Assembly (NCBI GenBank): GCA_963676515.1
Contig: OY781061.1
Coordinates: forward strand, 758,630-822,629
Direction: 5' to 3'
Length of the DNA stretch: 64,000 nucleotides
From: Candidatus Cloacimonadota bacterium
GTDB taxonomy: Bacteria; Cloacimonadota; Cloacimonadia; G963667145
Below are positions 1 through 60,585 of this stretch, one piece after another. Position 1 is the stretch's first letter. The number at the start of each line of letters is the position of its first letter. Below the pieces are notes generated by a model that did no database searches, was not told where the DNA came from, and was given only the letters and a program-made list of their open reading frames with translations. Both the position numbers and the translations under genes were made by a program.

Positions 1-3000
1 GTTGTGGTGGTAAGGCGTATTTCGGGTTTTTCCATTTTTGCCCAACCAGTTGCACTTTCATCGGAGACTTCGGAGGTTGTATAAGCTTGTGAACTTTCAT
101 CATAAAATATTTTTTTCAGCTTGTAGATATACTTGTTGCCATTTTTCACCTTTTGTGAACTCTCTTTGGACTGTGCATAGCGAACAAGGCAAGTGTCGTC
201 TGTCGTGCCAGAATCTTGAGCGACATCTGAAGTCTGCAAATCGTACTCTACCCACATATACTTGATACCATCTACGAAACTTTCGTCGCCAGATTTTTCC
301 CAAACCACCACTATAGAATCTTGATAAGTTCCTTGTGTAGCAACGATTTCATTGTCATATAGCCCAGCTTGATTCCATCCTTTTTTCTCGCCCGATTCAT
401 TTTCTAGCCAAGTCTTGAAGGTGTCGGAAATCGCATCTTTCATTCCACTTTGATAGACCTGCACCATATACGCATACTGCACACCATCTTTCCCCTCTGT
501 AGAGGACAATATATCCTTACAGACATATTCAGTTTTAGCTGCATCATATTTCTTATCTGAGGGTGAAATTTTATTATAGCTACCCCAGTCATTTTCTGTG
601 TTATTTACGGTGGCTGTGTCTGCACTTCTATAGACTTCCAGCTCAAAGCCAGGATCATCATAACCAATCTGCAGTTTCACAAAGCCGACGGAGTCTTGCG
701 ACAATGTAACATGCTCTGGTGAATAGAACTTCAGATACCCAATATCTGAGGACACATCAGAATAAACTCTTTGTCCGTCATAATAACAGCGACTATTCCA
801 CGCTGCTATGGCAAATCTATACTTCTTACCTATCTCCACATTAGAGATGCTTGCACTGACCAAGTTTACAGTACTATCTTGCGATGGTACCTCAGCCGAA
901 TCTACTAAATCTCCTGTAGCGTCCTCACTAATCCAAATAAAGTATCCGTCTGCTCTGGCGACTGTGTCCCACTCGGCTACTATCATCTCCGAAAACTTTC
1001 CATCGCTGGCAGTTAGCCATGCTGGAGTCTGCAGTTTGGTATAAGAGGTCAGAGGATCTCCATTCTTCGAGTACCTTTCTTTGGCATAAGCTACACCATA
1101 GTATTTGTACATACTACCCGAGAGGATATCCTTTGTGTCTACATAGGTGAGCCAGCCCTTGTATGCTGTCACATTATCATCGAAGATGATAGTATCTATT
1201 ATATGGGAGTTCCCTTGATTGTTGTCTTCTCGATAGAGGAGTACACTATCCGCACCCGTCGATCTTCTTATGTTTAGATTTACCTTGTCGGTATAAAAGT
1301 CTCCATCTCTTAGTTGTTCTATCTCTGGTGGATTGACCTTGATCGTGCCACTATCTGGGATGTCGTACCATGGAGACGAGGACTTATCCATATTGTTATA
1401 GTCATTATAGTACTCTTGGCTGTAGAATCGCATCCTGTAATAGTAAACCTTGCTTGGAGTTAGATCTTTGCTGTCTGTGTACTCTTCCCATTCCAGAGAG
1501 TCTATACTTTTCAAAATGCTCTCTGTAAACGCATTAGCAGACTCTCTTCTTTGTATTTGGTATCTCACATCCAAATCTTGATAAGCTTTAAGGACATCAC
1601 CGTCATCAGTAAGCTCTGTCGTCCAGCTCAAGACTATCTGATTGTCTTCGTCTTTGGTCAAGTTAGCAGAGCTAGCAGGCAACATCAATCTAGTGTGACC
1701 AGAGTCTTGGCTAAGCTCTTCTGTTTGGAATGGCAGTTCTGAGCCTGAGGGAGTCTCACCTCTTATCTGGAACTGAGTCATTATCCCTCTAGTTAATGTG
1801 CCTTCCATAGAGAGAGTGATGTCGTAAAAATCGTCCTTGTTCGTTACCGCTCCATTGGCTAGCTGAACAGACTCACTTCCATTATCATAATAAATGACAT
1901 ATCTCGAGGTCTGGTCAAGAGCGGTGTCTGTATCCTCTAGATAGTTGTCCCAAGTAAACCTGATGGAGTCTGCGTACTTCCCTTTGGTGGCAGTGAAGTT
2001 TATCGGAGCGGGTAGTTTGAGCCAGCCCTCTACTATGTCACTCCAATCTGAGAGAACCTCTGATCTTTGGAATCTAATCCTGAAATAGTACTTCTTGCCT
2101 GGGAGTAGTCGCTGTTCTTCGCTTTCACTTCTTTCCAGTATTCCACTCGAGTCTGCTCCATTATTTACAAAGCTCGTTTCCATGATGTCTGCAGAGCTGC
2201 CAAAGCCATCTGCCGTCCACTGCACGACTACATCGCTGACCACATCATTATCCATCCTATTCCACTCTACTCTCAGCGTATCTAGCTTGCCATTGTATAG
2301 CTTGAGGTCTGGCTGTGCTATAGAGCTATAGAACTTTTTCGCTAGCGAGAAGTCAGAACAAATCTCAAAAACTTCTGTTCCTCCCCCAGCTGTCATCACA
2401 GTGGTCTTTGTTATATAGGTTTTTAGTTTTGTATAATACTCTTTACCCTCTACAAACCAATCCGAAGAACTGAACCTACCTATCAAATCGTCTGTAGTGC
2501 TGTCCTTTAGCGAGATAGAATCTAACGGGTTCACTACTTCATTGCCTTCTCCTACAAAAATCCTAGCCTTAGAATCTTCGTTGCCACCTTCTCTGCTCCA
2601 CTCCATCGCTATTTCTGGCGTATTTTTGGAGATAGTGACTATCTTTGGCTTCTTGAGCTTGGTGTATCCACCCCTATAGCTGCTGGCACTGGACAGATGC
2701 TGATCTCTTTTGGCTTGCACCTTGTAATAATAAACCGTTCCATCTTCCAATCCTACACCATTATTGTCGTCTAGATATTGTGTGGGTGAGCCGTCTACTG
2801 TATCTACGATAACAGAAGGATCAAACTCCGTATTTTCGCTCCGCAAGATGACATACTCTTTGGCATCTTTTGTCCCATACCACTTTATCGTTATCTGCCC
2901 AGTATCCACACCCTTGTCTGTATAGGACAAACTAGGTGTCAGGAGCTCCAAAGATGCCATCTTCACGGCGGAAGTGTCTGAGATGGTCATTCCATCTTTG

Positions 3001-6000
3001 TATGCTCTCATATAGTAGTAATAGTCCGTACCCAAGAGGCAATCCTCGTCTGACCAAGTATAGTTGTATTTGTTTACATCCACCGCCATCGTATAGACAG
3101 GATCTCTTTCTGGATCATCGTAGGCAGTTTTCCGATAGATGTAGAAACTATCGATATTCTTGATGTAATCTTGCTCGTATTGCCATTCTAGTGTTATCGA
3201 ATCTTCTCCGTATGGTGTCGCTCCGATGAGATAAGGAGGCAGCAACCTAGCATAAGCGACGATCTTTTCTGTCGGAGCTGAGCTAAGATAGCGAGGATGT
3301 CTGGCAGTGATAGTGTAAGTAAAGCAAACGCCCTCTTCTACATTCGTGGTGTCGCAGAAGCAGCCTGTATCTGAGAGGATTTTATATTCGGGGGTATAGT
3401 CCCTAGAAATAATATACTCTACCTCTTCGTTTCTACCGTGAGGCAACTCTTGCTTTGACCAGCGAAGAGTAATCGTGTCTGAGTTTTCGCCTATAGATGA
3501 GAACTCAACCTCTGGTGTCCTGAGCTTGTACCAGCCAGAGTCCAGAGCACTAAAAGCCGAAGAAATTTGTATCGCCTCGTCAAAATAGCAACTCTTGGCT
3601 TTGAAGTAATACATCGTAGCTGGAGCAAAATTCTGATTGTCTCTCGTGTTTATCATCAGATAGCCACTGGCAAGCTGACTATACTGTTTCTCCAAAGAGA
3701 GAAGCGATGTCCAATCATCTGCTGGCTCAGAGACGGTGTCGTAGTAAATGTCCAGCTTGTTTACTCTGCTGAATTGCTGAGCATTGGTATCCCAAGATAT
3801 CTTGATAGAGTCCGTCATCAATCCATCTTGCTCGTTGTCCACCGTAATCTCTAGTGGCTTAAGAGTAATCCAGCCGTAGTCACTCCATCCACTCCAGTCC
3901 GAGTAAATTGTTGCTTTCTTGCTCCTGACGCGATAGTCGTAGATGTAGCCATCGCTACTATTCAAACTGTTGTAGTCCTGCACCTTAATGGTGATACTGT
4001 CGGCAGATGAAGCATCTACGCTAAATCTGGTTTCATCATAGTCCACATCAAAGGTGTCTCTATCCTCTCTTGCTCTACGCACTATTTCATAGTTATCCAT
4101 ACCTGTCAGATTGTCAAAGGCTTTGAATGTGAGTGTGATGGTGTCTGTGCTCGTGCCTTGTGAGGCTCTGACATCCATAGGTGTAGTCAGTGCGATGTAG
4201 CCTGGATCACTGTTTGCTGTCTCTTTGTCGCCCTCTTTTGCCTCGGTGAAAGCTCGCACCCTAAAGTAGTAGCGAACTCCGACTTCCAACTTGCCGCCCT
4301 CTATAGACTCCTCGTATACATGGCGATCATCTGTGCTGGCAGGTCTTATCGTGTCCATCACACCGTAATCTAGCAGATTGTTGCTCTGGGCAGTATCTAT
4401 GATGTATCCTTCGACTTTCGTGAGGTTGTCCCAAGATATCACCACTTTATCGTGATATTCTCCATCGGTAGCTTCCACATTTTGTGGCACTGGCACAGAG
4501 ATATAGCCCGAGTCTATATCAGAGTAGTTTTTTTGCTCTTCGCCAAAAGTTACCGTTAAGTCATTTACAGCCAAGGCTTTGTAATAATAAATTTTACCGT
4601 AAATCAAATCGTCTATCGGGTCTTTGTATAGCAGTTCTGATGTTGTATTTATTTGTGCCCACTGAGAGGTAGTATCATCTGTTCTCCATACTTCGTAATA
4701 GTCTGCATTAGGAACGAGTGACCAGTTCAGACGGATAGTGTCTTCTAAATCACCTTTGGTCGCATTGAATCCTCCCACTTTGTCCAGCTGGGTGTATCCA
4801 GAATCTTGCTCCCCGTAACCATCAGAAGGCTGTAATTGCACCACAGAATTGTTTGCCCGCAACCTGAAATAGAATATCTCCCCTCTGTTAGATTCAATTA
4901 TATTCTTTAGAGTGTAAGAGTCTCCTATATCTGCTCTCGTGGTACTCCAGCTACCGGCAACTGCATCTTTTTGTAAATACTGCAAATTGTAATAGTCAGC
5001 GTTGGTATATGGTTGCCAGTCTATGCGGATAGAGTCCAAATAGTCGCCTTTGCTCACATATTTTATTTCCACGCCATCGAAGAGAGCAAACCCAGAGTCT
5101 GTGCATATCGTAGATTCTGTAGATGATGTGCCAAAGTCGGCGTCATAGAACCTCACTCCGAAGTAAATATACTTTCCTTGCTCACTTTCATCTTCTATCT
5201 CTACAGAGTATTGCGTGCCTTGCAGCGATATCAGCTGATTGTCCCACAGTGTAGCGAGTGTGTCGCTTTTATAAATCTGGGTAGTATAGTTTTTGGGGTT
5301 TTCCCATTGCAAGTAGATCGAGTCTGTGGCAAGTCCATCGCTAGCACTGAACCCCAAAGGAGTCGGCAGAGCCAGCCAGCCTGTAGCAGAGTCTGCACTC
5401 ATTAACGAGGAGTGAGCCACCGTCATATCGCCACTGGCAGCCATCATCGCTCTCACTTGATAGGAGTATTTGTGCTTTTCTTCTAGCTTCGCTGTCACAG
5501 CGTTTTGAGTCAAGATGATAGTATCGCCAGAGATAGTCATATCCCCCGGAGATAATATCTGCGTAGAGTCCACTATGCCTGTGGTCTCATCCTTCTGATA
5601 GACTCGGTAAGAGACCAAATCGTCGTGCTGATATGCATCGGACTTCTTCCACTTGACTACAATCTTCTTCTCATAGTCGCCTGTGCTAGCAGAGACCATA
5701 TCGGGAGTGGAAATGCGAGCATATCCTATAGCTGTGCCCGAGAGTGCCGAGTAATTGCCAGCACTAGAACGAAAGTTTACGCTCCCGTTTACATTCACTG
5801 CGAAGATATAACGGCGTCCTCTTTTGATGCCAAACCACTCATTTCCTGTTGTATATTTCGCCCCAACCTCTACGGTAAACTCAGGAGCTGTCGGTGGTAA
5901 ATCTGTGTAGTTTGCATCATTATTCCCTGTAATTCTCTTGCCCTCTTCAGGTTTGTCTTTAGTTAAATCAAAATCGTTAGAATTTAGAATGCTGTCGGTA

Positions 6001-9000
6001 TAAACATTATAGCTTATATCTGTTAAAGAAGCACTCTGCATGCCATCCCAAGAGACGACTATCTTGTCCTCGTACTCTCCATTTGTAGCTTCTATATTCT
6101 CTGGTGGCAAAAGCGGAGTCGTGATTGTCATAGTATCGCTATAGTCAGACATCCCTGTGATGTCTTTGTAAAATCTCACGCTGTAAGCATAAGTTGTCAT
6201 CATCATCAAGAATTTATTGTCCTCGAAGAAGCCTGGTACTCCTTGCCCTTCGTTAGGCCTCACGGCTACACTATATCTCTCATTTTGGCTTTCAGCCACT
6301 TCACGATAAAAGAAGATCGAATCCACCCAATCGTTCGGACAGGAGTAGCTGACTTTCACATATGAGCCGATAGTCAGTAAAGACGATATCACATCATCTA
6401 CCTCTGGAGTAGGCATCTTGGTGTATAGCGGCAACCACTCCGACCACGCAGAGTAACCGTATGTAGCTCTCTTTGAGCGTATGCGGACAGAATTATACTT
6501 AAATCTATCTGCCTCTTCTACAAAGATGGAGGTGTCTTTCGTCGTGCCGGGTATATCCTCGATGGTGTTTGCCACGGCTTCGCCTATCTTGTAGTCTATC
6601 TCATAGGTGATACTGTTCGGACTCAGCTCGCAGGGGTCTTCCCATGTCATACGGATGGAGTCTTCTATCAGAGCATACTCTCCGTCTTGGGCGGTGTATT
6701 TCACGAACTCTGGAGCGGGTATCTCTGCCCAACCAGAGTCTAGCATGCTCATCTCGGACTCTTGGGCTCCTACTTTGGCTATCAAGCCGTAATAGAACAT
6801 CTCGCCTATCTTCCTGTCGTCTAGGGCGTCCGTATAGCTCAGAGTCTTTTGGCTGTAGCCATCCCAGTCGCTTGGCTCTATATTACCGATGTAGTTCATC
6901 AGCTCTACGCTGTCACTCTCGCCTCTGTACACCAGATATTTAGTAGCTCCGTAGCTCGGGTTCGAGAGATTTTGAGGTGCATTCCACGAGACGATGATGG
7001 TGTCTTGCACATCGCCCTTGGTAGCTTCCACTCCATCGGGTGCCAAAAGCTGTGCTATACCGATGCACTCGTCCGACCAGTCAGATTTTTCGTTCTCGCA
7101 ATTTTCGTTGAGTGCTCTCACTTGGTAAACATACTTATGCCCTGTGAAAATGCCCACGACATCTTCCAAGCTCGTTGTTGTTACCGTTTGGTATGTCGTG
7201 TCTTCTTTGCCTGAGAAGTCGAAAGCTCGTTTCACTTCAAAACTTTTGGCAGCACTCGGTGTTGTCCATTCCAGATAGATAGCCATTATAGAGTCTTTCG
7301 TTATCTTAGTTACATACGGTGCAGGTGTCTTTGCCCATCCGTAATAAGGCTTACCTTCCTCTTGTTGCGAGAGTGGCGACCACACACCGTTTGGTGTCGT
7401 CTGCGTCCTGATCCGATAATAATATTTTGTTCCGGGGTGAAATTTACCAGCAGTGGCATTCACGGCGTTGTGCAGATAGAAGTAATGTGACTTACTGTTA
7501 TCTTCCACTTCTAGAGTGTCATACACATTTGTACCGTCGTTGTAGTCAGCGGCAGTTTGGTAAACGAATATCTGGAATCTGAGCTCATCGCCTGTAGGCA
7601 ATGATGGCCACGCAAGCCTAACATCCGAGAGATAAGTTCCCTTACTGACGGTGTCGAAGGTGATGGATGGTATGTCTATGTAGGTGTCAACCGTAACAAA
7701 TTCAGAGTTTTGCTCTATCCCTGTCGAGCCGACTCTGTTGGCTTGTGCTCTGTATTCGTAGGTCTTGCCCACTTTTAGATTCGCGTGTGTATAGTTCCCC
7801 TCTGTAGATGAGAGTGTTGCTAGTGGTTGGTATGTAGCGGCTACCTTCACCTCCAGAACTGTGCTGTCGGAGTTTTGGGATGGATCCCAGCTAAGATTGA
7901 TAGAGCTACTGCTCGAGATAGGCGTAGCTGCGAAGTTGGCTACTGGATACAGCTTGGTATAGCCAGTGACGACCTCGCTCTTGCAGCTAGCTCCAAACTC
8001 TGCACTGACTCCCTTCACGAAGAACTCTATATCCGCTCCGACCTCTTTTGCGGTGACGGTGTATTTGTACTCTTGCGTTATATCCGAGAGTTCACCTCGC
8101 ACCATTGCATCTTCTATGCCGTCATCATCGTTGCCCTCTTTCCACACTTGGTACTCTGTTACATCGTCCACTACGATCAGAGTGTCCCAAGTAATCACGA
8201 TGCTGTCTATCAGCCCTCTGCTCGCTTCCACATTCACTGGTCCTGCTATAGCTAGCCAGCCTACATCATAGAGAGCTTCCCATCCTTCCGAAATCTGTGT
8301 GCCTTTTTGCACAGCGATACGATACTCATACTTTTGTCCATCAAGCAAGGTTTCTTTTTTCTCATCCACAAACCTATTTGTCTCTATAGAAAAGCTAGTG
8401 GTGTCAGCAGAGCTGGTAGCTCCCACTCTAGATCTCTCTACGAAATAGCTCTCTGCCACAGCGACAGAGTCCCATGTCACCACGATGCTATCTCTATATT
8501 TACCGTCCGTTGCCTTTATGTTGCTCACATTGGGCATCTTGGTGTAACCTGTAGCTAAGTTCCTTTTGTATTCGGTGCTGAGGTCGCTATAACCCGTCTG
8601 ACCGATGTCTCCCAAGAACCCTCTAATCTTATAGGTGTAAGAGAACCCCTTGGCTACATTGCCATCATCGAGATAGACCGTATCTCCTGTAGTGGAAAAT
8701 CTCAGCTCGCTTGTATCTTTGGTAAAAATAGCAGAATCGCCAGACTCTATGTATCTGCATATTTGGTACTTTTCGGCTTTAGTCACCGCATCCCATTGGA
8801 CTACGATTTTGTCGGCATACTCTGCTTTGCTCGCTTCCACATGCTCTGGTGGTGTCGGCATCGCATAGCCAAACACGCTATCGCACGATACTTTTACATT
8901 TGGATAATCTTCCGTGGCGACAGCTAGCCTGTAGTAGTAATAGTGGTTAGCTTTTGCTGTCGCGTCTGTCCACTGGCTTACATCTTGCAGTCCACTAAAC

Positions 9001-12000
9001 ATCGTTACCCAAGCAACCGAGTCTTCTTCTCGCCTAAGACCAATGCAATTAACTCTGTCTCCCTTGTTCGTCCATGTCAGGAGTACACTGTCCTTCAGTG
9101 CTGTCTCTTGCGGACCTGTCGCCAAGAAGTTCCTTACTGCTGTCAACTGACTATAGCCAGTAGTAGTGTCCGAATATTCAGACCAAGCAGCACTCAAATT
9201 TTCTTCTGGGTAAACTGAGTCTATCTCTCTTTCAGCTGTTTTGTTTATCACCCGCACTCTATAAATGTACTTTCGCCCTTCTAGGACATTGTCTACATCT
9301 GTGTAATCTCCGTTGTTACTCACATCCAAGGTGACTTCTTCATTGCCTGTATTGGTCCTGAGCATCTGGTAAGTCAAAACATCGTCGCCAGCTTCTATCG
9401 TGTTCCACTTTATTACTATCTTGTTGTCTTCGCCTTTGCTCGCTCCATCGCTAAAGGTCAATATTGGCAACTCCGTGAAGCCCGGCTTGAACTCCGTCAA
9501 GACTGACTCTCTACCCTCATTAGGTTTGTAGGTGCTCAAGGCGAAATAAACCACTTGCCCAGTATCTGCATCTATGCTGCTATCTGCTGTCGCACCTTCG
9601 TAAACTGGCACGCTATAGCACATATAGCCATCACCTCTGTCATCTGCATCGGCATCAGCGATATAACCAAGCAGTTTTTTTTGCCCATGCTTTGCTGTTT
9701 TGTAATAAATCCCATAATTCACTGCGGCAGCTTTGCTAAAATACAAGTTGATCGTGTCGTCTTCGGTGGCTAAACTTGCCCTATCGAAATCTGGTGGCTG
9801 CAGCGAAACCCAGCCAGTATCAATATTAGAGGTGACCTCAGCATGCTTTTTGGTAGCGTAATCTGCTCTATGAGAAACTATTTTATAGAGATACTCCTTT
9901 TCGCAGTCCAGCGTAGAGCTTTCATCGTAATAAGTATATTCTGTACTTCCATCATTGTCTTTGTTCTCTATGACTTCGTAATCATCAGCACCACCTACGA
10001 CTTTTCTACATACCTGATACTTTGTCGCTCCGCTATTTTTCAAAGTCTTCCACTGAAGCATTATCTTGTCGGCGTATTCATCCTTCCCTGCGGTCAAGCT
10101 ATACGCAGCATCGAGCTTCATATAGCCTTCTACTATATTACTCAGGTCTGACTCTCCCCAGCCCTCTTTGCTCGTAGTGACCGCAAACTGGTAAATCTTG
10201 CCATAAGTCAGTTTGCCCTCTTCGGGGTAGAGAGTCACTGTAGAGTCGCCCACTGCCACACTTGTACCTTCTTCCCAGCCGTCATTGCTATCGTAATCTT
10301 TGTAATAAACTCTGTAGCTTTCGTTAGATTTGGACTCCCAGTATAAGATAATTTTGCTATCTAGGTTGTGAGAAACAGAGTCCAGCACAGGGATAGTAAG
10401 GGCTGTCATCGCACTACTGCTTAGCTCTACTTTCCCCGATGTCTCGTAATCTCCAGTGCTCAAAAGGATGCTACTTTCTGTCTCTATTTGATACATATAT
10501 TCCGTAGCTGTCGCCAAGCCAGTATCTTTGTAAGTCACCGTCTCGCCTGAAACTTTCTCTATAAAGGCGTAGGCGTCTGTGGTATTTTTTAGTTTGCGAT
10601 ACAAGTTGTAATTTTGTGCATATTTCACAGGATCCCACTCCAGATCTACCCAGTCAGTATTAACACCCACTGATTTAAATCCATCCGGAGCAGCTATCTT
10701 GATCCAGCCAGAATCTATGTCAGAATCTTCACTCGACTCTACATCGTTCTTACTACGGATCTTGTAAATATATTTCACGCCTCTATCTATGCTGTATTCG
10801 TCTTGTGTTAAGGTCATATTTGTTAGCAAGGTGTCCGCTGTTATAGACGGCAATCTAGCCCAGTCTCCAGCCATGCCTTGCTTGTATATCACTATATAAG
10901 ACTTAGCGTTTTCTACTTTATTCCATCGTACCACCACCACACTATCTCCGCCTTTGGTAGCAGACATGCTAAATGGAGGCTCGATCGCAGCGTATCCCAC
11001 TTTTTCGGTAGAATAATCGGACTCTCCTATCACCTTGCCACCGTCGCTTTCGTACACTGTAGCCGAGTAATAATATTTTTTACCTGGCTCGACATTACTT
11101 ATCACACCGTCTTCCAGCGTAATTATCCCCATACCGCCAGAGGAAGCAACCGCACCAAGCACATCCGTCAGCTTGACGACCGTTTCAGAGTTCAACTCTC
11201 GTCTATAAAGTTGCACCACCAGATCTTGCCCTTCTTCTGGAGCTACAGTTTGGACCTTTATTCGGATAAACCCAATAGAATCTTGTGTCGTCGTCAAGAT
11301 AGTAGGCGTAGGATATTTAGTGTAACCTAAGTTAAAATAATAACCTTCTGGATTTTTATCGTTCTCTCCACTGTTAGCTCCCGTCTCCTTGCCATCTTTC
11401 ACACAAGTCACTTTGAAGCGGTAGTTTACACCTATTTCAGAATCCATCCATTCGTAAGCTCTATTCTCAAATTCGTCACTACCATCTATTACTTCTGTTA
11501 CAGGTGTATAGCTCGTTTCGCTCTCTTTTTTCACATAGATTATATAACCCTCTATGCCATAGACTTCATCCCATGTAATGCGGATCTTGTCACTATAGTC
11601 TCCCTTACTGGCATATACATTCTCTGGCGACTCTACACTCGTCCATCCAGAGTCCAGTGCCGTCATCTCCGAAGATTTCTCGCCCTCATCCACGATCACT
11701 ATCTGTGTCTTGAAATAGTAAATCATCCCTTTGAGAATGTCGTCTTCCAGCTCCATGCCTTCACTGTTCTTGAGCTCAGACAAAGATATCGACACCTCAT
11801 TCTCTGTCACATTTTTGCTATCCGTGGAGTAATATATCATCGCATTGCCCAGCAAACTTTGCTCTGCAGCTACTTTGATCCTATCGGGGACATTCCAAGA
11901 GATACCGATCTTCTTTGGAAAGATACCCTTGGTAACTTCGACATTATTTAGAGTAGGAATCTCCAGCCATCCTATAGCTGGAGTGGAACGAGGCAGAGAT

Positions 12001-12347
12001 TTGGTCGTTCCTCGCACAGAACGCACCTTATAATAATACGCTTTACCCGGAGCCAACTGCAAATCGCTATCCACATAGCGAGTAGCCTGCACTTGCCCTA
12101 TGGAATAATAATCCTCGGCAAAGTTGCTGGAGTTTATCGACGCCCTGTATATCTCGTAATCGGAGACACCCGTTACCGAGTTCCACTCGATGACGATCTG
12201 TTCCTCGTATACACCCTGTGTCGCTGCAGCAACTGGGCTAGAAATTGTTGCTTCCATTTCTGTGGTACATCCCACGAAAAGGGATACAAACAACAATAAA
12301 GCTAGTAGAACTTTTTTTATTTTTTTCTGCCTACTATAAGCTTCCAT
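1..12347 (-). CDS. Giant surface lipoprotein with tandem Fn3/Ig-like beta-sandwich repeats (partial; the 3' end lies beyond the window start)
   Basis: ATG at 12347-12345 (minus) with AGGAGA 6 nt upstream. The N-terminus MEAYSRQKKIKKVLLALLLFVSLFVGC is a signal peptide plus lipobox Cys. Hand translation of the reverse complement shows a continuous open frame to base 1 (at least 4115 codons). The ORF track lists no other minus-strand ORF between 304 and 12534, which is what an unterminated giant ORF would produce. About 85-90 aa units recur, with motifs such as ATKGDYxDKIxVxW...YxVYR...YYYxVxA. Confidence 0.8.
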   Translation of the reverse strand, partial: MEAYSRQKKIKKVLLALLLFVSLFVGCTTEMEATISSPVAAATQGVYEEQIVIEWNSVTGVSDYEIYRASINSSNFAEDYYSIGQVQATRYVDSDLQLAPGKAYYYKVRSVRGTTKSLPRSTPAIGWLEIPTLNNVEVTKGIFPKKIGISWNVPDRIKVAAEQSLLGNAMIYYSTDSKNVTENEVSISLSELKNSEGMELEDDILKGMIYYFKTQIVIVDEGEKSSEMTALDSGWTSVESPENVYASKGDYSDKIRITWDEVYGIEGYIIYVKKESETSYTPVTEVIDGSDEFENRAYEWMDSEIGVNYRFKVTCVKDGKETGANSGENDKNPEGYYFNLGYTKYPTPTILTTTQDSIGFIRIKVQTVAPEEGQDLVVQLYRRELNSETVVKLTDVLGAVASSGGMGIITLEDGVISNVEPGKKYYYSATVYESDGGKVIGESDYSTEKVGYAAIEPPFSMSATKGGDSVVVVRWNKVENAKSYIVIYKQGMAGDWARLPSITADTLLTNMTLTQDEYSIDRGVKYIYKIRSKNDVESSEDSDIDSGWIKIAAPDGFKSVGVNTDWVDLEWDPVKYAQNYNLYRKLKNTTDAYAFIEKVSGETVTYKDTGLATATEYMYQIETESSILLSTGDYETSGKVELSSSAMTALTIPVLDSVSHNLDSKIILYWESKSNESYRVYYKDYDSNDGWEEGTSVAVGDSTVTLYPEEGKLTYGKIYQFAVTTSKEGWGESDLSNIVEGYMKLDAAYSLTAGKDEYADKIMLQWKTLKNSGATKYQVCRKVVGGADDYEVIENKDNDGSTEYTYYDESSTLDCEKEYLYKIVSHRADYATKKHAEVTSNIDTGWVSLQPPDFDRASLATEDDTINLYFSKAAAVNYGIYYKTAKHGQKKLLGYIADADADDRGDGYMCYSVPVYEGATADSSIDADTGQVVYFALSTYKPNEGRESVLTEFKPGFTELPILTFSDGASKGEDNKIVIKWNTIEAGDDVLTYQMLRTNTGNEEVTLDVSNNGDYTDVDNVLEGRKYIYRVRVINKTAEREIDSVYPEENLSAAWSEYSDTTTGYSQLTAVRNFLATGPQETALKDSVLLTWTNKGDRVNCIGLRREEDSVAWVTMFSGLQDVSQWTDATAKANHYYYYRLAVATEDYPNVKVSCDSVFGYAMPTPPEHVEASKAEYADKIVVQWDAVTKAEKYQICRYIESGDSAIFTKDTSELRFSTTGDTVYLDDGNVAKGFSYTYKIRGFLGDIGQTGYSDLSTEYKRNLATGYTKMPNVSNIKATDGKYRDSIVVTWDSVAVAESYFVERSRVGATSSADTTSFSIETNRFVDEKKETLLDGQKYEYRIAVQKGTQISEGWEALYDVGWLAIAGPVNVEASRGLIDSIVITWDTLIVVDDVTEYQVWKEGNDDDGIEDAMVRGELSDITQEYKYTVTAKEVGADIEFFVKGVSAEFGASCKSEVVTGYTKLYPVANFAATPISSSSSINLSWDPSQNSDSTVLEVKVAATYQPLATLSSTEGNYTHANLKVGKTYEYRAQANRVGSTGIEQNSEFVTVDTYIDIPSITFDTVSKGTYLSDVRLAWPSLPTGDELRFQIFVYQTAADYNDGTNVYDTLEVEDNSKSHYFYLHNAVNATAGKFHPGTKYYYRIRTQTTPNGVWSPLSQQEEGKPYYGWAKTPAPYVTKITKDSIMAIYLEWTTPSAAKSFEVKRAFDFSGKEDTTYQTVTTTSLEDVVGIFTGHKYVYQVRALNENCENEKSDWSDECIGIAQLLAPDGVEATKGDVQDTIIVSWNAPQNLSNPSYGATKYLVYRGESDSVELMNYIGNIEPSDWDGYSQKTLSYTDALDDRKIGEMFYYGLIAKVGAQESEMSMLDSGWAEIPAPEFVKYTAQDGEYALIEDSIRMTWEDPCELSPNSITYEIDYKIGEAVANTIEDIPGTTKDTSIFVEEADRFKYNSVRIRSKRATYGYSAWSEWLPLYTKMPTPEVDDVISSLLTIGSYVKVSYSCPNDWVDSIFFYREVAESQNERYSVAVRPNEGQGVPGFFEDNKFLMMMTTYAYSVRFYKDITGMSDYSDTMTITTPLLPPENIEATNGEYEDKIVVSWDGMQSASLTDISYNVYTDSILNSNDFDLTKDKPEEGKRITGNNDANYTDLPPTAPEFTVEVGAKYTTGNEWFGIKRGRRYIFAVNVNGSVNFRSSAGNYSALSGTAIGYARISTPDMVSASTGDYEKKIVVKWKKSDAYQHDDLVSYRVYQKDETTGIVDSTQILSPGDMTISGDTIILTQNAVTAKLEEKHKYSYQVRAMMAASGDMTVAHSSLMSADSATGWLALPTPLGFSASDGLATDSIYLQWENPKNYTTQIYKSDTLATLWDNQLISLQGTQYSVEIEDESEQGKYIYFGVRFYDADFGTSSTESTICTDSGFALFDGVEIKYVSKGDYLDSIRIDWQPYTNADYYNLQYLQKDAVAGSWSTTRADIGDSYTLKNIIESNRGEIFYFRLRANNSVVQLQPSDGYGEQDSGYTQLDKVGGFNATKGDLEDTIRLNWSLVPNADYYEVWRTDDTTSQWAQINTTSELLYKDPIDDLIYGKIYYYKALAVNDLTVTFGEEQKNYSDIDSGYISVPVPQNVEATDGEYHDKVVISWDNLTKVEGYIIDTAQSNNLLDYGVMDTIRPASTDDRHVYEESIEGGKLEVGVRYYFRVRAFTEAKEGDKETANSDPGYIALTTPMDVRASQGTSTDTITLTFKAFDNLTGMDNYEIVRRAREDRDTFDVDYDETRFSVDASSADSITIKVQDYNSLNSSDGYIYDYRVRSKKATIYSDWSGWSDYGWITLKPLEITVDNEQDGLMTDSIKISWDTNAQQFSRVNKLDIYYDTVSEPADDWTSLLSLEKQYSQLASGYLMINTRDNQNFAPATMYYFKAKSCYFDEAIQISSAFSALDSGWYKLRTPEVEFSSIGENSDTITLRWSKQELPHGRNEEVEYIISRDYTPEYKILSDTGCFCDTTNVEEGVCFTYTITARHPRYLSSAPTEKIVAYARLLPPYLIGATPYGEDSITLEWQYEQDYIKNIDSFYIYRKTAYDDPERDPVYTMAVDVNKYNYTWSDEDCLLGTDYYYYMRAYKDGMTISDTSAVKMASLELLTPSLSYTDKGVDTGQITIKWYGTKDAKEYVILRSENTEFDPSVIVDTVDGSPTQYLDDNNGVGLEDGTVYYYKVQAKRDQHLSSASSYRGGYTKLKKPKIVTISKNTPEIAMEWSREGGNEDSKARIFVGEGNEVVNPLDSISLKDSTTDDLIGRFSSSDWFVEGKEYYTKLKTYITKTTVMTAGGGTEVFEICSDFSLAKKFYSSIAQPDLKLYNGKLDTLRVEWNRMDNDVVSDVVVQWTADGFGSSADIMETSFVNNGADSSGILERSESEEQRLLPGKKYYFRIRFQRSEVLSDWSDIVEGWLKLPAPINFTATKGKYADSIRFTWDNYLEDTDTALDQTSRYVIYYDNGSESVQLANGAVTNKDDFYDITLSMEGTLTRGIMTQFQIRGETPSGSELPFQTEELSQDSGHTRLMLPASSANLTKDEDNQIVLSWTTELTDDGDVLKAYQDLDVRYQIQRRESANAFTESILKSIDSLEWEEYTDSKDLTPSKVYYYRMRFYSQEYYNDYNNMDKSSSPWYDIPDSGTIKVNPPEIEQLRDGDFYTDKVNLNIRRSTGADSVLLYREDNNQGNSHIIDTIIFDDNVTAYKGWLTYVDTKDILSGSMYKYYGVAYAKERYSKNGDPLTSYTKLQTPAWLTASDGKFSEMIVAEWDTVARADGYFIWISEDATGDLVDSAEVPSQDSTVNLVSASISNVEIGKKYRFAIAAWNSRCYYDGQRVYSDVSSDIGYLKFYSPEHVTLSQDSVGFVKLQIGYDDPGFELEVYRSADTATVNNTENDWGSYNKISPSDKKYDAAKTEYVCKDILSSTEGKDGVQYAYMVQVYQSGMKDAISDTFKTWLENESGEKKGWNQAGLYDNEIVATQGTYQDSIVVVWEKSGDESFVDGIKYMWVEYDLQTSDVAQDSGTTDDTCLVRYAQSKESSQKVKNGNKYIYKLKKIFYDESSQAYTTSEVSDESATGWAKMEKPEIRLTTT

Positions 12348-12699
12348 ACAGTGTCTCCTTCTTTATAAAATCGTGCAAGTTAAACGCATTTTTAAACATT
12401 TTTGGCATTTTTGGTAAATTTCCTATCTCTTTATAAAATAATATAGTTATCACTACTACTCCGACCTCTTTCACTCATTTTAGGGGTACAAAACACGCCC
12501 ATACTATCCAAGCTGGTCTTCCGTGTAGTTTTTGTCAAATATTTTTTAATCTTTTACCCACATCTCGTATTTTACCCAAAAACAAGCAAATACGGACAAC
12601 GAAAAAGAAGTAATCCACACAAAGACAACACTTTATCCACAACAAAACCAGCACAAAAAAACAAAAAAAAAGAAAAGAAGTAAACAAAACTAAATAAGA

Positions 12700-12744
12700 A
12701 AAATTACTGAAAAACAAATAAATGTTTCAATTTTCAGTAATTTT
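12700..12744. terminator. Perfect 14-bp inverted repeat (aaaattactgaaaa / ttttcagtaatttt) with a 17-nt loop, flanked by A/T tracts. It could be a bidirectional terminator or an operator, about 350 nt upstream of the giant gene.
   Basis: The palindrome is read directly from the sequence. U-rich flanks are present on both strands. Confidence 0.4.
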
Positions 12745-12949
12745 CTTTTATCCATTTAACTTTTTGTTTTCCAGTTAGATATGCACTTAGATTTTTTTTG
12801 CTTTTTTTTTCTGTTTTTTTAAACTACAAGAGAATAAAGAGTAAGAAATTGTCGTTTTTTTTCATAAATGGGCAAAAATAGCAATTTTTAATTGATAATA
12901 GAGGATTTCTACTTTTCTCTTTTAGAAACCTACTTTGTTAAAATCTGCT

Positions 12950-13625
12950 CTCCTGACGACAGATTCCCTCATCCTCACGAAAGCTAAGAACCAAAACCAC
13001 AGATGGACACGGATTTCCTCATCCTCGCGAAAGCGGGGATCCAAAGGCGGGCTAGTGATGGCGGTTCTCTCTCGCTAGGCGGGTGGGGTTTCCTCCGCTT
13101 CACGGGCAGAGCCAGAAACACAGTCAGTCGTCTTTGGCACTGCAAAGCCAACAATCGAAAATGCACAGCTAAGAACAAATCTCGGAGGTGCTCTCCACCA
13201 CGGACAACCTACACACCTCACGCCATATCTCCGGAGGATTGAAGCGGAGCGGTTTTCTTTTCTCCTCCAATCTGACCACATAAATGAAATCTCAAATGAT
13301 TAGCTATATTTATGTGGTCAGGGCGGGAAACAAGGTGTGGGAGTGGCTAGTAAATAATTAAAACAGAAAGCGTAAAATTCGTTTACCGCCCAAAGCTACG
13401 CTGACGACGAAGTGCTATATCACCTATGAAAGACAAAATGCGATTCATAGCACGAGGCTGACAGCGTGCGAGGAAGGTTTAGAATTTAGCTTGCTGATTT
13501 GGTATTTTGACTTTACCTTTTGTTACTTTTCGCTTTGGTCAACCAAAGGGAAAAGTAAGACCCTCCGTCAGGAGGCCAGCTAAAAGAATGGATTCCTGCT
13601 TCCGCAGGAATGAGGAATGGTGGTA
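12950..13625. repeat. Mosaic hairpin-rich intergenic repeat, copy 1 (module order A', A, B, C, D, E)
   Basis: It shares long near-identical segments with 36625-37111 (direct) and 35255-35470 (inverted). It contains a GNRA-loop hairpin (atcctcgcgaaagcggggat), a long module-C hairpin (acgctg..gtgctat..atagcac..cagcgt), the module-D hairpin (ttacttttc..ctttggtcaaccaaag..gaaaagtaa) and the module-E hairpin (attcctgcttccgcaggaat). The copy is bounded by ctcctgacg at 12950 and cgtcaggag at 13565. Confidence 0.75.
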
Positions 13626-13634
13626 GCACGATAC

Positions 13635-13671
13635 AAAAAGAGGTCAAAGCAAAAGCTCTAACCTCTTTTTT
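13635..13671 (-). terminator. Hairpin with an A tract before and a T tract after, immediately 3' of the EamA transporter gene
   Basis: aaaaagaggt..(loop)..acctcttttt; the stem is agaggt/acctct. Confidence 0.5.
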
Positions 13672-13685
13672 AAAACCATCAATTT

Positions 13686-14627
13686 TTAGTCACTCTGGCT
13701 CATGAGAGCTTTTTCCCTATCCCGCACGATGAAAGAGAGTGCCAACAGAAGCACAGCACAACCTGCTAGTTGCACAGTGTTTAGCGTATTTCCATTGATG
13801 AAGTAATCCAAAACTATCGCCGTGAGTGGCCAAAAAAGCTCGAAGAGCGTGGCGATAGATGCGGAGATTTTCTTGAGACCGAAGTAGTAGAGGAAAATCG
13901 CTCCTGCTCCGCTGGTGCAGAGGATCAGCCCGAAAAGCAGCCAGTGGGAGAGAGTAAAGCTTTGTGTTTGCACGATTTGCCCCGAGACACAGATGTAAAG
14001 CAAGGCTATCAAGGCGGTGAACCCAAATCGCAATGAGGTAGCCGCTTTGAAATCCAGATCGCTGACGATCCGCTTGCCAAAAACCGTAGAAGAGCCAAAA
14101 CTAAAAGCTGCTATCACTGCAAAAAAAGCTGCGTTGTGTGTCAGATCCAGATCTTGCCAATTTAGCCCGTGTTTGCCGAAAGCGATAAAATAAGTGGCGA
14201 AAACAGCCACCATTGCCCAGAGGTAAAAAACTTTCCCCATTTTTTCTTTGAGGAGCAAACGAGCGATCAAGATGGCAAAAATTGGTTGCAGTTTTTGCAG
14301 GACGACCACAGTCGCAAAAGAGATTTCTCCGTTGACAGCGGCAAAAAAAGCTTTGGTGATGAACAAAGTGCCCAAAAAGCCTCCTAAGAGGCAAATCCAG
14401 CCTATTGCCAGCCAATCTCTTTTTTGCAGTGCTGCAATCTCTCGAAAATATTTTATGCCGAAAGGGAGCATAATTATCGCTCCGAAAAAATGCTCCCAAA
14501 AAACCACCAACGCTGGGGGAAATCTGTAAAACTGAGGACGGATGAAAACTCCGTCGGCACTCCACATAGAAGCTGCCAAACCTACCGCCAAGCAGCCAAT
14601 TATCAACTGCAAATTTTTCTTGTTCAT
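13686..14627 (-). CDS. EamA/DMT-family membrane transporter
   Basis: 313-aa ORF made of hydrophobic helices throughout, with the overall EamA-like duplicated 5-TM character. Confidence 0.6.
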   Translation of the reverse strand: MNKKNLQLIIGCLAVGLAASMWSADGVFIRPQFYRFPPALVVFWEHFFGAIIMLPFGIKYFREIAALQKRDWLAIGWICLLGGFLGTLFITKAFFAAVNGEISFATVVVLQKLQPIFAILIARLLLKEKMGKVFYLWAMVAVFATYFIAFGKHGLNWQDLDLTHNAAFFAVIAAFSFGSSTVFGKRIVSDLDFKAATSLRFGFTALIALLYICVSGQIVQTQSFTLSHWLLFGLILCTSGAGAIFLYYFGLKKISASIATLFELFWPLTAIVLDYFINGNTLNTVQLAGCAVLLLALSFIVRDREKALMSQSD

Positions 14628-14648
14628 TTTCGTTTCGTCCTTTTTGAT

Positions 14649-15110
14649 TTATATCTGCTTCAAAAGATTTGCCATCTCCAAAGCACAAACGGCAGCCTCG
14701 GCTCCTTTGTTGCCCGCTTTCGAGCCTGCTCTCTCTATAGCTTGCTCCAGCGTGAGCGTGGTGATAACTCCGAATATCACGGGCACTCCGGTCTGCAACA
14801 TCACATTGGCGATGCCTTTGCTCACCTCCGCACCTACGAACTCGTAATGGCTGGTTTGCCCTTTGATGACAGCTCCCAAGCAGATGATGGCGTCGTATTT
14901 GCCACTAATGGCAAGTTTCTGTGCCGCTAGCGGTATCTCGAAAGCTCCTGGCACTTTGACAATCTCGATGTTGTCTTCTGCTACCTCGTGCCTTTGCAAA
15001 CTGTCCACTGCTCCTTCTACGAGCCTCGTGCCGATGAAATCGTTAAATCTGCTGACCACGATAGCAAATTTACCGCCTGTTCCTATCAATTTTCCTTCAT
15101 AAGTTTTCAT
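14649..15110 (-). CDS. ribH: 6,7-dimethyl-8-ribityllumazine synthase
   Basis: 153 aa; [26 protein letters not shown]...GAFEIP is typical of RibH. Confidence 0.85.
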
Positions 15111-15131
15111 AATTTCTCTCCCAGTATAAAT

Positions 15132-16328
15132 TCAAAATTTCAACAAATGTCCCATTTTATTCTTTTTCGTTTTCAGATAATAGTCGCTTTCGCTGCTGTG
15201 CTTTATTTGGATCTGGACTCTTTCTACGATTTCCAAATCGTATTTGGATAATCCCGATATCTTGTGAGGATTGTTGGTGAGCAAGCGGATCTTGCCAACT
15301 CCCAAATCGCTCAGTATCTGAGCTCCTGTGCTATATTCTCGCATATCTTCGGGGAATCCCAACGCCAAATTCGCCTCCACCGTGTCCATGCCTTGGTCTT
15401 GCAAGTCGTAAGCTTTTATCTTATTCAAGATGCCGATGCCCCTGCCTTCTTGTGTCATATAGAGGAAAACGCCCGTGCCAGCTGACTCTATCAGCTTCAG
15501 AGCTTCCGCTAGCTGTCCTCCACAGTCGCAGCGAAGCGAGCCGAAGGTGTCGCCTGTCAAGCATTCGGAATGCACTCTCACCAAGCACGGCTCATCCTTT
15601 TGCGGTCGTCCCTTTACCAAAGCGATGTGATGCTTGCCAGTGTGAATCTCTCGATATCCCACCATCTGGAATTTGCCATATTTGGTCGGCAACTCGGCAG
15701 ATGCGACTTTTTCCACCAGCTTCTCCTGCTTTTTGCGATATGCTATCAGAGCCTCGATGGTGACAATCTTCAGGCTGTGCTCACGAGCAAACTCTACGAG
15801 TTCAGGCACTCTTGCCATCGTGCCGTCTTTGGACATAATCTCACAGATAACTCCAGCAGGTTTACACCCTGCCATGCGAGCCAAGTCGACTGCAGCCTCT
15901 GTGTGCCCAGCTCTTTCCAGCACTCCTGCATCTTTGGCTGCCAGAGGAAAGATGTGCCCCGGCTGAGTAAAATCCTGGTTCTTGCCGTTATTGTCCAGCA
16001 GTGCCTGAATAGTGCCCGACCTCTCGAAAGCGGAGATGCCCGTAGTGCAATCTTTGTGGTCGACCGAGGCGGTGAAAGCTGTCCCCTTGGCATCGGTGTT
16101 CTTGGCAACCATCGGGAGCAGTCCCAGACTGTCCAGCTTGCTCTGCGTCATCGGCACGCAGACCAGCCCTCTGGCGTGTGTCACCATAAAGTTGATCACC
16201 TGTGGCGTGGCGTGCTCGGCACAAACCAAAATGTCGCCCTCGTTCTCCCGATTCTCATCGTCCACCACGATCACCATCTTTCCCAGTTTGAGGTCAACAA
16301 TAGCTTCCTCTATCTTATTAAAAATCAA
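15132..16328 (-). CDS. ribBA: Bifunctional 3,4-dihydroxy-2-butanone-4-phosphate synthase / GTP cyclohydrolase II
   Basis: 398 aa; the N-terminal DHBP synthase part ([14 protein letters not shown]) and the C-terminal GTP cyclohydrolase II part (CxxC...C zinc motif) are both present. Confidence 0.85.
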
Positions 16329-16364
16329 AATATCCTCCTATTATGAGTAATTGTGCAAATAGTA

Positions 16365-18118: not shown

Positions 18119-18148
18119 CTTGAGCCTCTCTTTTTTTCCACAAAAAAA

Positions 18149-18178
18149 CACTTGCCCTAAAATATTTCAAGGCAAGTG
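18149..18178 (-). terminator. Intrinsic terminator of the rib leader (FMN riboswitch expression platform)
   Basis: Minus-strand RNA gcacuugcc-uugaaauauuuuag-ggcaagug followed by U7. Confidence 0.8.
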
Positions 18179-18194
18179 CTACTAAAAAACGCTC

Positions 18195-59823: not shown

Positions 59824-59824
59824 C

Positions 59825-60580: not shown

Positions 60581-60585
60581 AATTT

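Follow-up and report, generated by a model that had tools for sequence, protein, structure and literature searches.

A giant gene of tandem fn3 modules with a lipoprotein signal in a Cloacimonadota bacterium, and its plausible role as a surface fibre

The window analysed here is a 64,000-nucleotide stretch of the genome of a Candidatus Cloacimonadota bacterium, and its first 12,347 positions hold the 5′ part of a giant gene that is real and intact (Table 1). Translation of the minus strand from the ATG at 12347 to base 3 gives 4,115 codons with 0 stops, which bears out an earlier, sequence-only reading that had described a single open frame of more than 4100 aa reaching the window edge. An in-frame TAA lies 6 codons 5′ of this ATG with no other start in between. 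A frame of 4,115 codons without a stop is impossible by chance and the protein is conserved in other assemblies, and the gene is therefore regarded as real. As that reading also remarked, the gene is overlooked by the ORF list, in which only short plus-strand ORFs appear for 1-12347, because ORFs running off the window are not listed. ORF tracks that need a stop inside the window overlook such giant genes in general, and assemblers break or fold back within them. The neighbours of the gene are a riboflavin operon and an EamA transporter, and its chromosomal position next to the rib operon is conserved. The mature in-window part of the protein has a mass of 460 kDa and a pI of 4.5, and the in-window composition is acidic, Ser/Thr/Asp-rich and Cys-poor.

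Table 1. Features of the giant gene and its upstream region, in window coordinates.
Feature	Position	Strand	Remarks
Giant gene, 5′ part	1..12347	-	Open at window edge; bases 1-2 form a partial codon
Start of module 40, 21 residues	3..65	-	…GWAKMEKPEIRL…, …SATGWAKMEKPEIRLTTT; cut by window edge; fits the start motif G-W/Y-x-x-L-x-x-P
fn3 chain, 39 modules, aa 24-4094	66..12278	-	Own HMM, Pfam fn3, AlphaFold/Foldseek, PDB profile matches
Lipoprotein signal peptide, aa 1-27 (predicted)	12267..12347	-	K/R-rich n-region, hydrophobic core, lipobox L-F-V-G-C, Cys27
Shine-Dalgarno-like AAGGAG	12360-12355	-	7 nt ahead of ATG; identical in L001 and L082
Conserved upstream block with TTGACA (12538-12533)	12495..12575	-	Only this upstream element is conserved across the four orthologous regions
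Six A/T homopolymer runs, 7-9 nt	12655..12862	.	A-rich upstream block
Perfect 14-nt inverted repeat	12700-12713/12731-12744	.	AAAATTACTGAAAA / TTTTCAGTAATTTT; 17-nt spacer
Second perfect 14-nt inverted repeat	13272-13285/13308-13321		

A profile HMM built iteratively from the giant protein, and thus trained on the same protein that it scores, resolves 39 contiguous modules over aa 36-4087, with 35 aa ahead of module 1, gaps of 27 aa or less between modules and no non-fn3 domain types between them in the 4,115 aa in the window. The modules are longer and fewer than first supposed: their start-to-start spacing averages 104 aa (range 92-134) and not the proposed ~85-90 aa, and instead of ~45 or more there are 39 and the start of a 40th, at which the orthologous frames run on past the point where the window edge cuts it. 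The core motif given previously was essentially right, and agrees with the consensus over the 39 modules, …AS/T-K-G-x-Y-x-D-x-I-x-L-x-W…Y-x-I-Y-R…G-K-x-Y-Y-Y-K-V-R-A. Among its residues the W is present in 33/39 modules, the I and the G in 30/39 each and the Y in 31/39, and no module has lost the residues that define the fold.

The fn3-like beta-sandwich periodicity proposed for these modules is borne out by both profile and structural comparisons. Pfam fn3 (PF00041) scores 134.3 bits on the protein where the cutoff is 25 (E 1.8e-39), and six stretches pass singly; the remaining modules are too diverged for the Pfam profile and match the protein's own module HMM, while an NCBIfam search returned noise only. 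An AlphaFold model of a single module (pLDDT 88.1) is all-beta, and its top Foldseek matches in the PDB are all FN3 domains, namely Tencon, Fibcon and sDscam FNIII (TMq 0.61-0.66). The model of two consecutive modules (pLDDT 88.5, pTM 0.79) matches tandem FN3 pairs, aligning with extended fibronectin pairs (2gee, TMq 0.65 at 4.2 Å; 1fnf, TMq 0.64) and superposing on fibronectin EDB-FN8, fibronectin FN7-10 and titin A77-A78. A profile of the modules searched against PDB sequences found titin as its best match (1.7e-31) and also matched neogenin FN3 domains.

The modules are highly diverged from one another, with a mean pairwise identity of 18.9% (maximum 35%) and 18.1% between adjacent modules, such that neighbours are no more alike than distant modules. 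No super-repeat was found among them at lags 1-20, and self-BLASTP gave no internal match at 1e-3, the repeats being visible to profiles only. Orthologous modules are 37-68% identical in the relative at locus L082 and 24-52% in that at L083, with averages of 51% and 36%; every module has its own ortholog in both, order and number are conserved between species, and the 1:1 colinear alignment with L082 contains only 99 gap columns over 4,115 aa. This combination of low paralogous identity, one ortholog per module and end-to-end alignment points to an old chain of fixed order that has not been homogenised. Concerted evolution, for which a check had been advised, is thereby refuted, and a recently amplified or homogenised tandem-repeat adhesin was rejected on the same comparison, 19% within the protein versus 51% and 36% between orthologs in colinear 1:1 order. 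Tandem domains tend to diverge and so avoid misfolding with each other, a principle that the low identity of neighbouring modules fits.

The N-terminus carries a lipoprotein signal, as originally proposed, with the layout RQKKIKK, VLLALLLFVSLFV and G-C27. The residues MEAYSRQKKIKKVLLALLLFVSLFVG before C27 match a PROSITE-style lipobox pattern (PS51257-type; regex scan) within the first ~35 residues, and the pattern is present in all five N-termini compared, those of the window and of the orthologs L001, L082, L083 and L087, in which the residue at +2 after the lipobox Cys is Thr or Asn and not Asp. Cys27 is thus predicted from the sequence to be the lipidated first residue of the mature protein. 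The window also encodes Lgt (23959-24735), LptB, an LptA-like protein, LptC and a BamB-like protein, and the presence of Lgt, the Lpt genes and the BamB-like gene indicates that the organism has an LPS outer membrane.

Relatives of the giant protein align over its whole in-window length, tblastn giving a single HSP for aa 1-4115 against the L082 gene (49.5% identity) and for aa 12-4110 against L083 (34.6%), and L001 is the closest relative. The first 700 aa have one close match only in the indexed protein database (P0001), and exact look-ups of the neighbouring EamA and RibH proteins gave no match, which places the source genome outside that collection. A pattern scan with the last 700 aa of the in-window protein found no relative in GTDB genomes or JGI metagenomes, and the six colinear family representatives among 1.84 billion representative proteins are all singleton clusters; this family of giant fn3 lipoproteins is very rare. 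Past the point at which the window ends, the frame stays open for 3,337 (L082) and 3,396 (L083) further codons, up to the locus ends, adding 26 and 25 more recognisable fn3 modules respectively, and Pfam finds only fn3 in these continuations. The called continuation products are 6,907 aa (L082) and 6,657 aa (L083) long, and a search with the first 700 aa of the former returned only the fragments P0156 and P0157. Sequence comparison with these relatives suggests a full protein of ~11,000 aa and a gene of ~33 kb, an estimate given by gene-caller lengths of products that run off the fetched loci, and the window probably holds ~37% of the gene. The size of the gene had been underestimated in the sequence-only reading. 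The PNPase in the window is 94% identical to that of a Ca. Cloacimonadales MAG with a 1.56-Mb chromosome, and the length suggested by the relatives would make the giant gene roughly 2% of a ~1.5-Mb genome.

We infer a plausible role as an adhesin or surface fibre, and the reading favoured here is that the ~33-kb gene probably encodes, in its ~11,000 aa, an N-terminally lipid-anchored, rod-like fn3 surface fibre that acts as an adhesin or spacer. After Sec export of the precursor, Lgt would lipidate Cys27 and signal peptidase II would cleave ahead of it, and the N-terminal lipid would anchor the protein in a membrane, of which the outer one is the likeliest. In an extended form resembling titin or fibronectin, the fn3 chain would be a rod that, at ~3.5 nm per domain, measures ~135 nm for the part in the window and >230 nm over the 65-70 modules known from orthologs. 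This rod may project its C-terminal part outward and so reach particles or syntrophic partner cells at long range, as an adhesin or spacer. A more specific and more tentative form of this reading, which we consider possible but would not assume, is a lipid-tethered surface fibre of ~1.2 MDa and ~11,000 residues, >250 nm long, composed of ~70-100 individually conserved fn3 domains and displayed by a syntrophic cell with a reduced genome of ~1.5 Mb. If true, no characterised bacterial lipoprotein would come near this ~1.2-MDa protein in size; its passage across the outer membrane would call for a route not yet described, and position-specific roles along the fibre would follow, such as a molecular ruler or a multi-site docking rail for partner cells, in place of that of a simple spacer.

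Enzyme- or toxin-bearing roles have been proposed for the giant proteins of Omnitrophota, and the literature ties giant proteins to cell-wall degradation (bioRxiv 10.1101/2023.11.21.568195; PMC12057145). In an alternative of this kind the fn3 chain is mainly a spacer, and its C-terminal region would be catalytic or lytic, for instance a peptidase or glycanase, and serve to degrade polymers or attack other cells. A hint in this direction comes from L083, in which an intact 11,084-aa gene adjoins the ortholog and ends in ~2,800 aa of non-fn3, GGxxG-rich sequence whose one family hint is the N-terminal region of IgA1-peptidase M26 at E 1.5e-5 and 24.8 bits, under the 27.7-bit cutoff. This neighbour is a different gene and not the ortholog, however, and searches with its tail came back empty, both for the last 700 aa against the indexed protein database and for the last 1,332 aa against the PDB. 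Pfam gave no T9SS CTD match on the 11,084-aa product. Pfam detects no catalytic domain, either in the 4,115 in-window residues or in the ~3,300 aa that follow in two orthologs, and an enzyme- or toxin-bearing arm is considered unlikely.

Lipoproteins of outer-membrane bacteria face the periplasm by default. The giant protein could accordingly be a scaffold inside the envelope, anchored on the periplasmic side of either the inner membrane or the outer membrane (inner leaflet) and lying along or around the cell as a belt or ruler; the strictly conserved number and order of modules would be in keeping with a fixed-length ruler. In the window the giant gene has no linked system for secretion or surface exposure, and ORFs of at least 150 aa in 12.3-64 kb (51 kb on the upstream side) include no T1SS gene set (ABC/MFP/TolC). 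A rod of >135 nm far exceeds the width of the periplasm, however, and an acidic, Ser/Thr/Asp-rich, Cys-poor, all-fn3 protein is typical of extracellular fibres. The characterised giant repeat proteins are also surface-located or secreted (PMC4053972; bioRxiv 10.1101/2023.11.21.568195), and on this evidence a location inside the envelope appears decidedly improbable.

The region upstream of the giant gene contains the perfect palindrome and the A/T homopolymer tracts noted previously (Table 1), and its short ORFs look spurious. The conserved TTGACA block is a candidate promoter or leader element; no canonical -10 hexamer lies 16-18 nt from TTGACA, a sigma-70 consensus scan of the upstream region found no minus-strand site, and an Rfam search there returned nothing credible. 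A sigma-54 reading of the block was dropped, as its GC element is not conserved in L001. The first inverted repeat, ~160-200 nt upstream of the TTGACA box, has one change in L001, and in L082 and L083 only its core TTTCAGT is invariant. The homopolymer tracts had been taken as a sign that expression might be phase-variable, with slippage in the upstream A/T runs, or in the two A7 runs (A7-T-A7 at 12312-12326) inside codons 8-12 of the coding sequence, toggling an adhesin. These runs do form the densest cluster of A/T runs of at least 7 nt in the window (8 in 650 bp versus 94 overall), and their lengths vary by 1-2 nt among the window, L001 and L082. The upstream runs are located 117-324 nt 5′ of the sole invariant box, however, and not between promoter hexamers, and what L001 and L082 conserve is an A-rich block, which would suit curved DNA or an UP-element. 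Of the coding-sequence runs, L001 has shortened versions and L082 and L083 have none. The window is AT-rich, and tracts of 7-9 nt abound in it; 34 runs of at least 8 nt occur over its 64 kb. Phase variation of this gene is consequently held to be very unlikely, and the suggestion is not upheld.

Several relatives of the gene are interrupted, with one frameshift each in the giant-gene orthologs of L082, L083 and L087 and a second giant locus, L086, split into at least 11 pieces, which may reflect decay of some copies or errors of assembly. A conserved programmed frameshift was considered, since ~135-195 codons separate the shifts of L082 and L083, both close to the window edge, and was rejected as the main reading: the two shifts are opposite (+1 and -1) and in different modules, both are single-base events in short A-runs, at L082:22400-22420 and L083:22660-22700, L084 reads in one frame across both sites, and L087 shifts elsewhere. 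The frames beyond the shifts in L082 and L083 remain open for >3,300 codons, an unexpected length for DNA without translation and a sign that the shifts are errors of assembly or happened very recently. That the giant gene is a decaying relic on its way to becoming a pseudogene, as these interruptions might suggest, is extremely improbable for a window copy with no stop in its 4,115 codons and with the fold of all its modules preserved, given also the long continuation products of L082 and L083 and the continuity of L084.

Cloacimonadota are abundant uncultured fermenters and syntrophs of anaerobic digesters. At ~2% of a genome of ~1.5 Mb, such a gene has to earn its cost, and in the L083 relative two such genes stand side by side and together take up ~4% of the genome; this share makes the giant protein a good candidate for a molecule of attachment to particles or to hydrogen-consuming partners. 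With no two of its domains alike and their order strictly conserved, the very long fn3 chain is also a clean natural case, useful for understanding how giant multidomain proteins escape misfolding, and a lipoprotein of such size raises the question of its export.

Among known systems, titin and fibronectin have the same head-to-tail fn3 chains with short linkers and low identity between neighbours, however the giant protein is bacterial, has an N-terminal lipid anchor and lacks both Ig domains and a 7- or 11-domain super-repeat, and there is no evidence of common descent with these chains beyond the shared domain. The RTX/T1SS adhesins SiiE, LapA and MpIBP of Gram-negative bacteria consist of Ig-like repeats that are often near-identical, with an N-terminal retention module, C-terminal RTX repeats and a T1SS signal, and their T1SS genes are adjacent. 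The giant protein resembles them as a very long, acidic, rod-like chain of beta-sandwich domains, which in these adhesins holds a distal binding region at a great distance from the cell; it differs in having a lipobox N-terminus and no retention module, in being built of fn3 modules 19% alike (maximum 35%) and not of near-identical Ig-like repeats, and in the lack of T1SS genes in the 51 kb upstream of its gene. SprB, a giant gliding adhesin, is a very large repetitive surface filament; it is no lipoprotein, its repeats are of a separate type, and a T9SS sorting domain stands at its C-terminus. Bacteroidota show many lipoproteins on the cell surface. SprB and these lipoproteins come from the same superphylum as the giant protein, and the surface lipoproteins are 50-100 times smaller.

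In Chlorobium chlorochromatii, the proteins Cag_0614 (36,805 aa) and Cag_0616 (20,646 aa) are hemagglutinin- and RTX-adhesin-like with calcium-binding repeats, are encoded in genomic islands, and are hypothesised to stabilise cell-cell contact (PMC4053972). They share with the giant protein their size, their repetitive nature and an FCB-group host, Chlorobium living in a tight metabolic partnership, whereas the protein described here is an fn3 chain with a lipobox, encoded at a conserved chromosomal position beside the rib operon. The giants of Omnitrophota and other candidate phyla combine many domains, including dockerin, transmembrane helices and carbohydrate-active or toxin-like domains (Seymour 2023, PMC10066038; West-Roberts 2023 bioRxiv); these are likewise giant genes in small genomes of uncultured hosts, thought to act in surface cell contacts, whereas the Cloacimonadota protein has one domain type in the part seen. 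Giant genes in Cloacimonadota are mentioned in neither of these two studies, and a literature search found no paper on them.

The minus-strand frame that opens at the ATG at 12347 runs to the window edge over 4,115 codons without a single stop, as the sequence-only reading had proposed. An in-frame TAA is located six codons 5′ of this ATG, with no alternative start codon in between. The giant gene is, as also claimed, missed by the mechanical ORF list, which holds only short antisense ORFs of 83–150 aa across 1–12347, because ORFs running off the window are not listed. The encoded protein begins with MEAYSRQKKIKKVLLALLLFVSLFVG followed by C27, in which every sequence feature of a lipoprotein signal is present, and four orthologs open with the same lipobox, bearing out the signal predicted earlier.

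A module HMM, built from the Y-x-Y-x-V strand motif as seed and refined by iteration until convergence, identifies 39 fn3 modules arranged head to tail (aa 36–4087), with the final 21 residues of the window part beginning a 40th. This HMM scores the same protein on which it was trained; independent support comes from the Pfam match, structural models and orthologs. Gaps between modules are at most 27 aa, with 35 aa ahead of the first, leaving no space for another domain type. Start-to-start spacing averages 104 aa (median 102.5, range 92–134), and the period of 85–90 aa given previously instead fits the domain core; the proposed 45 or more copies were an overcount. The conserved-core motif was correct in substance, and the Fn3-type beta-sandwich assignment holds: Pfam fn3 matches the protein with 134 bits (E 1.8e-39) overall, six stretches alone passing individually. 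Searches of the giant protein against NCBIfam returned no match, and self-BLASTP at 1e-3 returned no internal match. An AlphaFold model of a single module, built with the 39 modules as alignment, has a pLDDT of 88.1, and its top PDB matches are all FN3 domains. The two-module model (pLDDT 88.5, pTM 0.79) matches tandem FN3 pairs, with the best superposition to extended fibronectin pairs, and the best matches of the module profile to PDB sequences are titin fn3 arrays.

Pairwise identity between modules averages 18.9% (maximum 35%), adjacent modules (18.1%) are no closer to each other than to distant ones, and no super-repeat was detected among the modules at lags of 1–20. Each module is, by comparison, 37–68% identical to its own ortholog in the relative L082 and 24–52% in L083. 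The L082 gene (ENA contig ERZ21831251:ctg12887l) aligns to the whole 4,115 aa in a single tblastn HSP with 49.5% identity and just 99 gap columns, the L083 gene (1.54-Mb contig ctg13038c) aligns to aa 12–4110 with 34.6% identity (tblastn), and L001, a closer relative, shares 67% identity across the first four modules. Low identity between modules, together with module-by-module conservation between orthologs, shows that the array is old and fixed in order and number, which refutes the concerted evolution considered by the sequence-only reading. An exhaustive HMMER search with aa 1–1200 against 1.84 billion representatives returned 3,744 proteins at E ≤ 1e-3 and 120 at E ≤ 1e-30, many of them long fn3-array proteins. 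Colinearity with the query is limited to P0007, P0008, P0009, P0024, P0015 and P0001, of which all except P0015 align from the N-terminus, and the five of these six that were examined are unnamed singleton clusters. No paper on giant genes in Cloacimonadota was found in the literature.

The relatives also indicate how the gene continues. The called L082 gene is 4,138 aa long, with its stop 52 codons beyond the equivalent of the window edge; the expected module sequence then resumes in the +1 frame, from which a 6,907-aa product is called. In L083, a 4,256-aa product is followed by a −1 shift and a 6,657-aa product. Both shifts fall within short A-runs, and the frame beyond them meets no stop before the locus ends, over 3,337 codons (L082) and 3,396 codons (L083), encoding 26 and 25 further recognisable fn3 modules, respectively; Pfam detects fn3 alone, and no other domain, in these stretches. 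A third relative, L084, reads through both shift sites in a single frame. Since more than 3,300 open codons after each shift, called to 6,657–6,907 aa, are unlike untranslated DNA, the shifts most likely stem from errors in assembly or from very recent events. The ancestral gene was most likely a single ORF of ~11,000 codons, the 6,657–6,907 aa parts being gene-caller lengths, and the window quite likely carries just ~37% of its giant gene. The two shift sites (L082 22400–22420, +1; L083 22660–22700, −1) lie 52 and ~190–250 codons past the window end and ~135–195 codons apart, and the chance of two random sites falling this close in 11,000 codons is about 3%. This closeness probably reflects chance or an error in assembly, given the continuity of L084 and a shift at codon 1907 in the related locus L087.

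The L083 relative (ENA ERZ21831251 ctg13038c) carries a pair of giant genes in tandem that take up about 4% of its 1.54-Mb contig, as an intact 11,084-aa gene lies directly upstream, ending 540 nt before the ortholog (L083 1–9461). The last ~2,800 aa of this neighbour are non-fn3, with abundant GGxxG-type motifs and a sub-threshold Peptidase_M26_N as the sole family match; the last 700 aa lack a homolog in the indexed protein database, and no PDB relative was found for the last 1,332 aa. A second giant fn3 locus on the 198-kb contig of L082 (L086 10001–27053) begins with P0015 (2,350 aa), for which the start is called inside the lipobox itself (VGC…), followed by at least 10 successive same-strand fragments of 74–867 aa. 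Housekeeping genes on both sides are intact, and the locus resembles either a paralog in decay or an assembly that is error-prone at this place. Low-coverage ERZ25074352 contigs fold back inside the giant gene (L001 1–8138; L084 ~3400–3700), L001 forming a perfect 3.2-kb inverted duplication about a 1.7-kb centre; these are chimeric assemblies, from which seemingly complete proteins of falsely small size arise, P0001 (463 aa) among them.

Sequence conservation with L001 and L082 extends over approximately 600 nt 5′ of the ATG; across all four orthologous regions, invariance is limited to a TTGACA box (12538–12533), a TTTCAGT core and several short blocks. The perfect palindrome described earlier is present as a 14-nt inverted repeat at 12700–12744, which the closest relative alone retains, with a single change. 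The homopolymer tracts are likewise real, the A/T runs being genuinely enriched 5′ of the gene. The phase-variable expression suggested for them is without positive support, since the runs are situated 117–324 nt 5′ of the TTGACA box and are maintained from species to species as an A-rich block, and two A7 runs in codons 8–12 are not conserved, giving nothing in favour of slipped-strand switching. Between the EamA gene and this conserved region is a GC-richer insertion of ~650–700 nt (12950–13650), missing from the orthologous spacer of L001, with many hairpins and short repeats and a 37-nt direct repeat in two copies. Spurious ORFs within it read "MDPRFREDEE", "IPAFARMRKS" and "FLIPAEAGIHSF", which we take to resemble frames of widespread REP/MITE-like palindromic elements.

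The closest matches to the window PNPase come from two Ca. Cloacimonadales MAGs, at 94% identity (1.56-Mb chromosome) and 84% (1.59 Mb), the next best matches being about 50%. Cloacimonadota belong to the FCB group, and LptB, an LptA-like gene, LptC, a BamB-like gene and Lgt are all encoded in the window and show that the cell has an LPS outer membrane and lipoprotein machinery. Located 5′ of the giant gene are an EamA transporter and then a riboflavin operon headed by an FMN riboswitch. L001 and L082 likewise have the EamA gene next to the giant gene on its 5′ side, the ribBA-ribH-EamA order is retained in L001, and the EamA protein may be a riboflavin-related transporter. No secretion system linked to the giant gene was identified in the window gene annotation. 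Elsewhere, an ApaLI-like restriction endonuclease and an N6/N4 DNA methylase (21184–23173, plus strand), situated at a low-GC island (31% GC in 20–22 kb vs ~42% elsewhere), are probably a horizontally acquired restriction-modification system, and a 457-aa ORF (58450–59823) with two Thy1 (ThyX) stretches, about twice the usual ThyX length, may encode a tandem-fused flavin-dependent thymidylate synthase.

Coordinates of features in the window
Feature	Position	Strand	Remarks
Shine-Dalgarno-like AAGGAG	12360-12355	-	just 5′ of ATG 12347
Perfect 14-nt arms	13272-13321		inside insertion 12950-13650
ATTCCTGCGGAAGCAGGAAT	13592-13611		inside insertion 12950-13650
EamA-family transporter	13686-14627		after riboflavin operon
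Riboflavin operon	16997-18151, 16365-17012, ribBA 15132-16328, ribH 14649-15110		within 13686-18319
FMN riboswitch	18194-18319	-	110 bits; precedes riboflavin operon
Outer-membrane biogenesis cluster	57333-62729		BamB-like beta-propeller, LptB (ABC), LptA/OstA-like, LptC, KdsC-like HAD hydrolase

The giant lipoprotein would be exported by Sec and then lipidated at Cys27. In E. coli, Asp at +2 leads to inner-membrane retention; the residue at +2 after Cys27 is Thr, not Asp, so by that rule it would not be retained, and anchoring in the outer membrane is proposed on this basis. At ~3.5 nm per fn3, the window part of the chain would form an extended rod of about 135 nm, and the ~65–70 modules seen in orthologs one of >230 nm; the rod may hold out a distal region that adheres to particles or partner cells. 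The window part is acidic and Cys-poor (pI 4.5, 460 kDa), a composition that would suit an extracellular fibre. Other readings would make the protein a periplasmic scaffold, an enzyme-bearing arm or a phase-variable adhesin, or the gene a decaying relic, and specific sequence evidence stands against each. The proposed surface rod can be filed among the giant repetitive cell-surface proteins, a broad known group, and combines three unusual traits: an N-terminal lipid anchor, fn3 modules that are wholly non-redundant and conserved in order, and a predicted length of ~11,000 aa in a genome of ~1.5 Mb. In its mode of action it would resemble giant rod-shaped adhesins known from other bacteria, and its build is that of titin or fibronectin. 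It departs from the RTX/T1SS adhesin class in the features that define it, namely N-terminus, repeat type and repeat identity.
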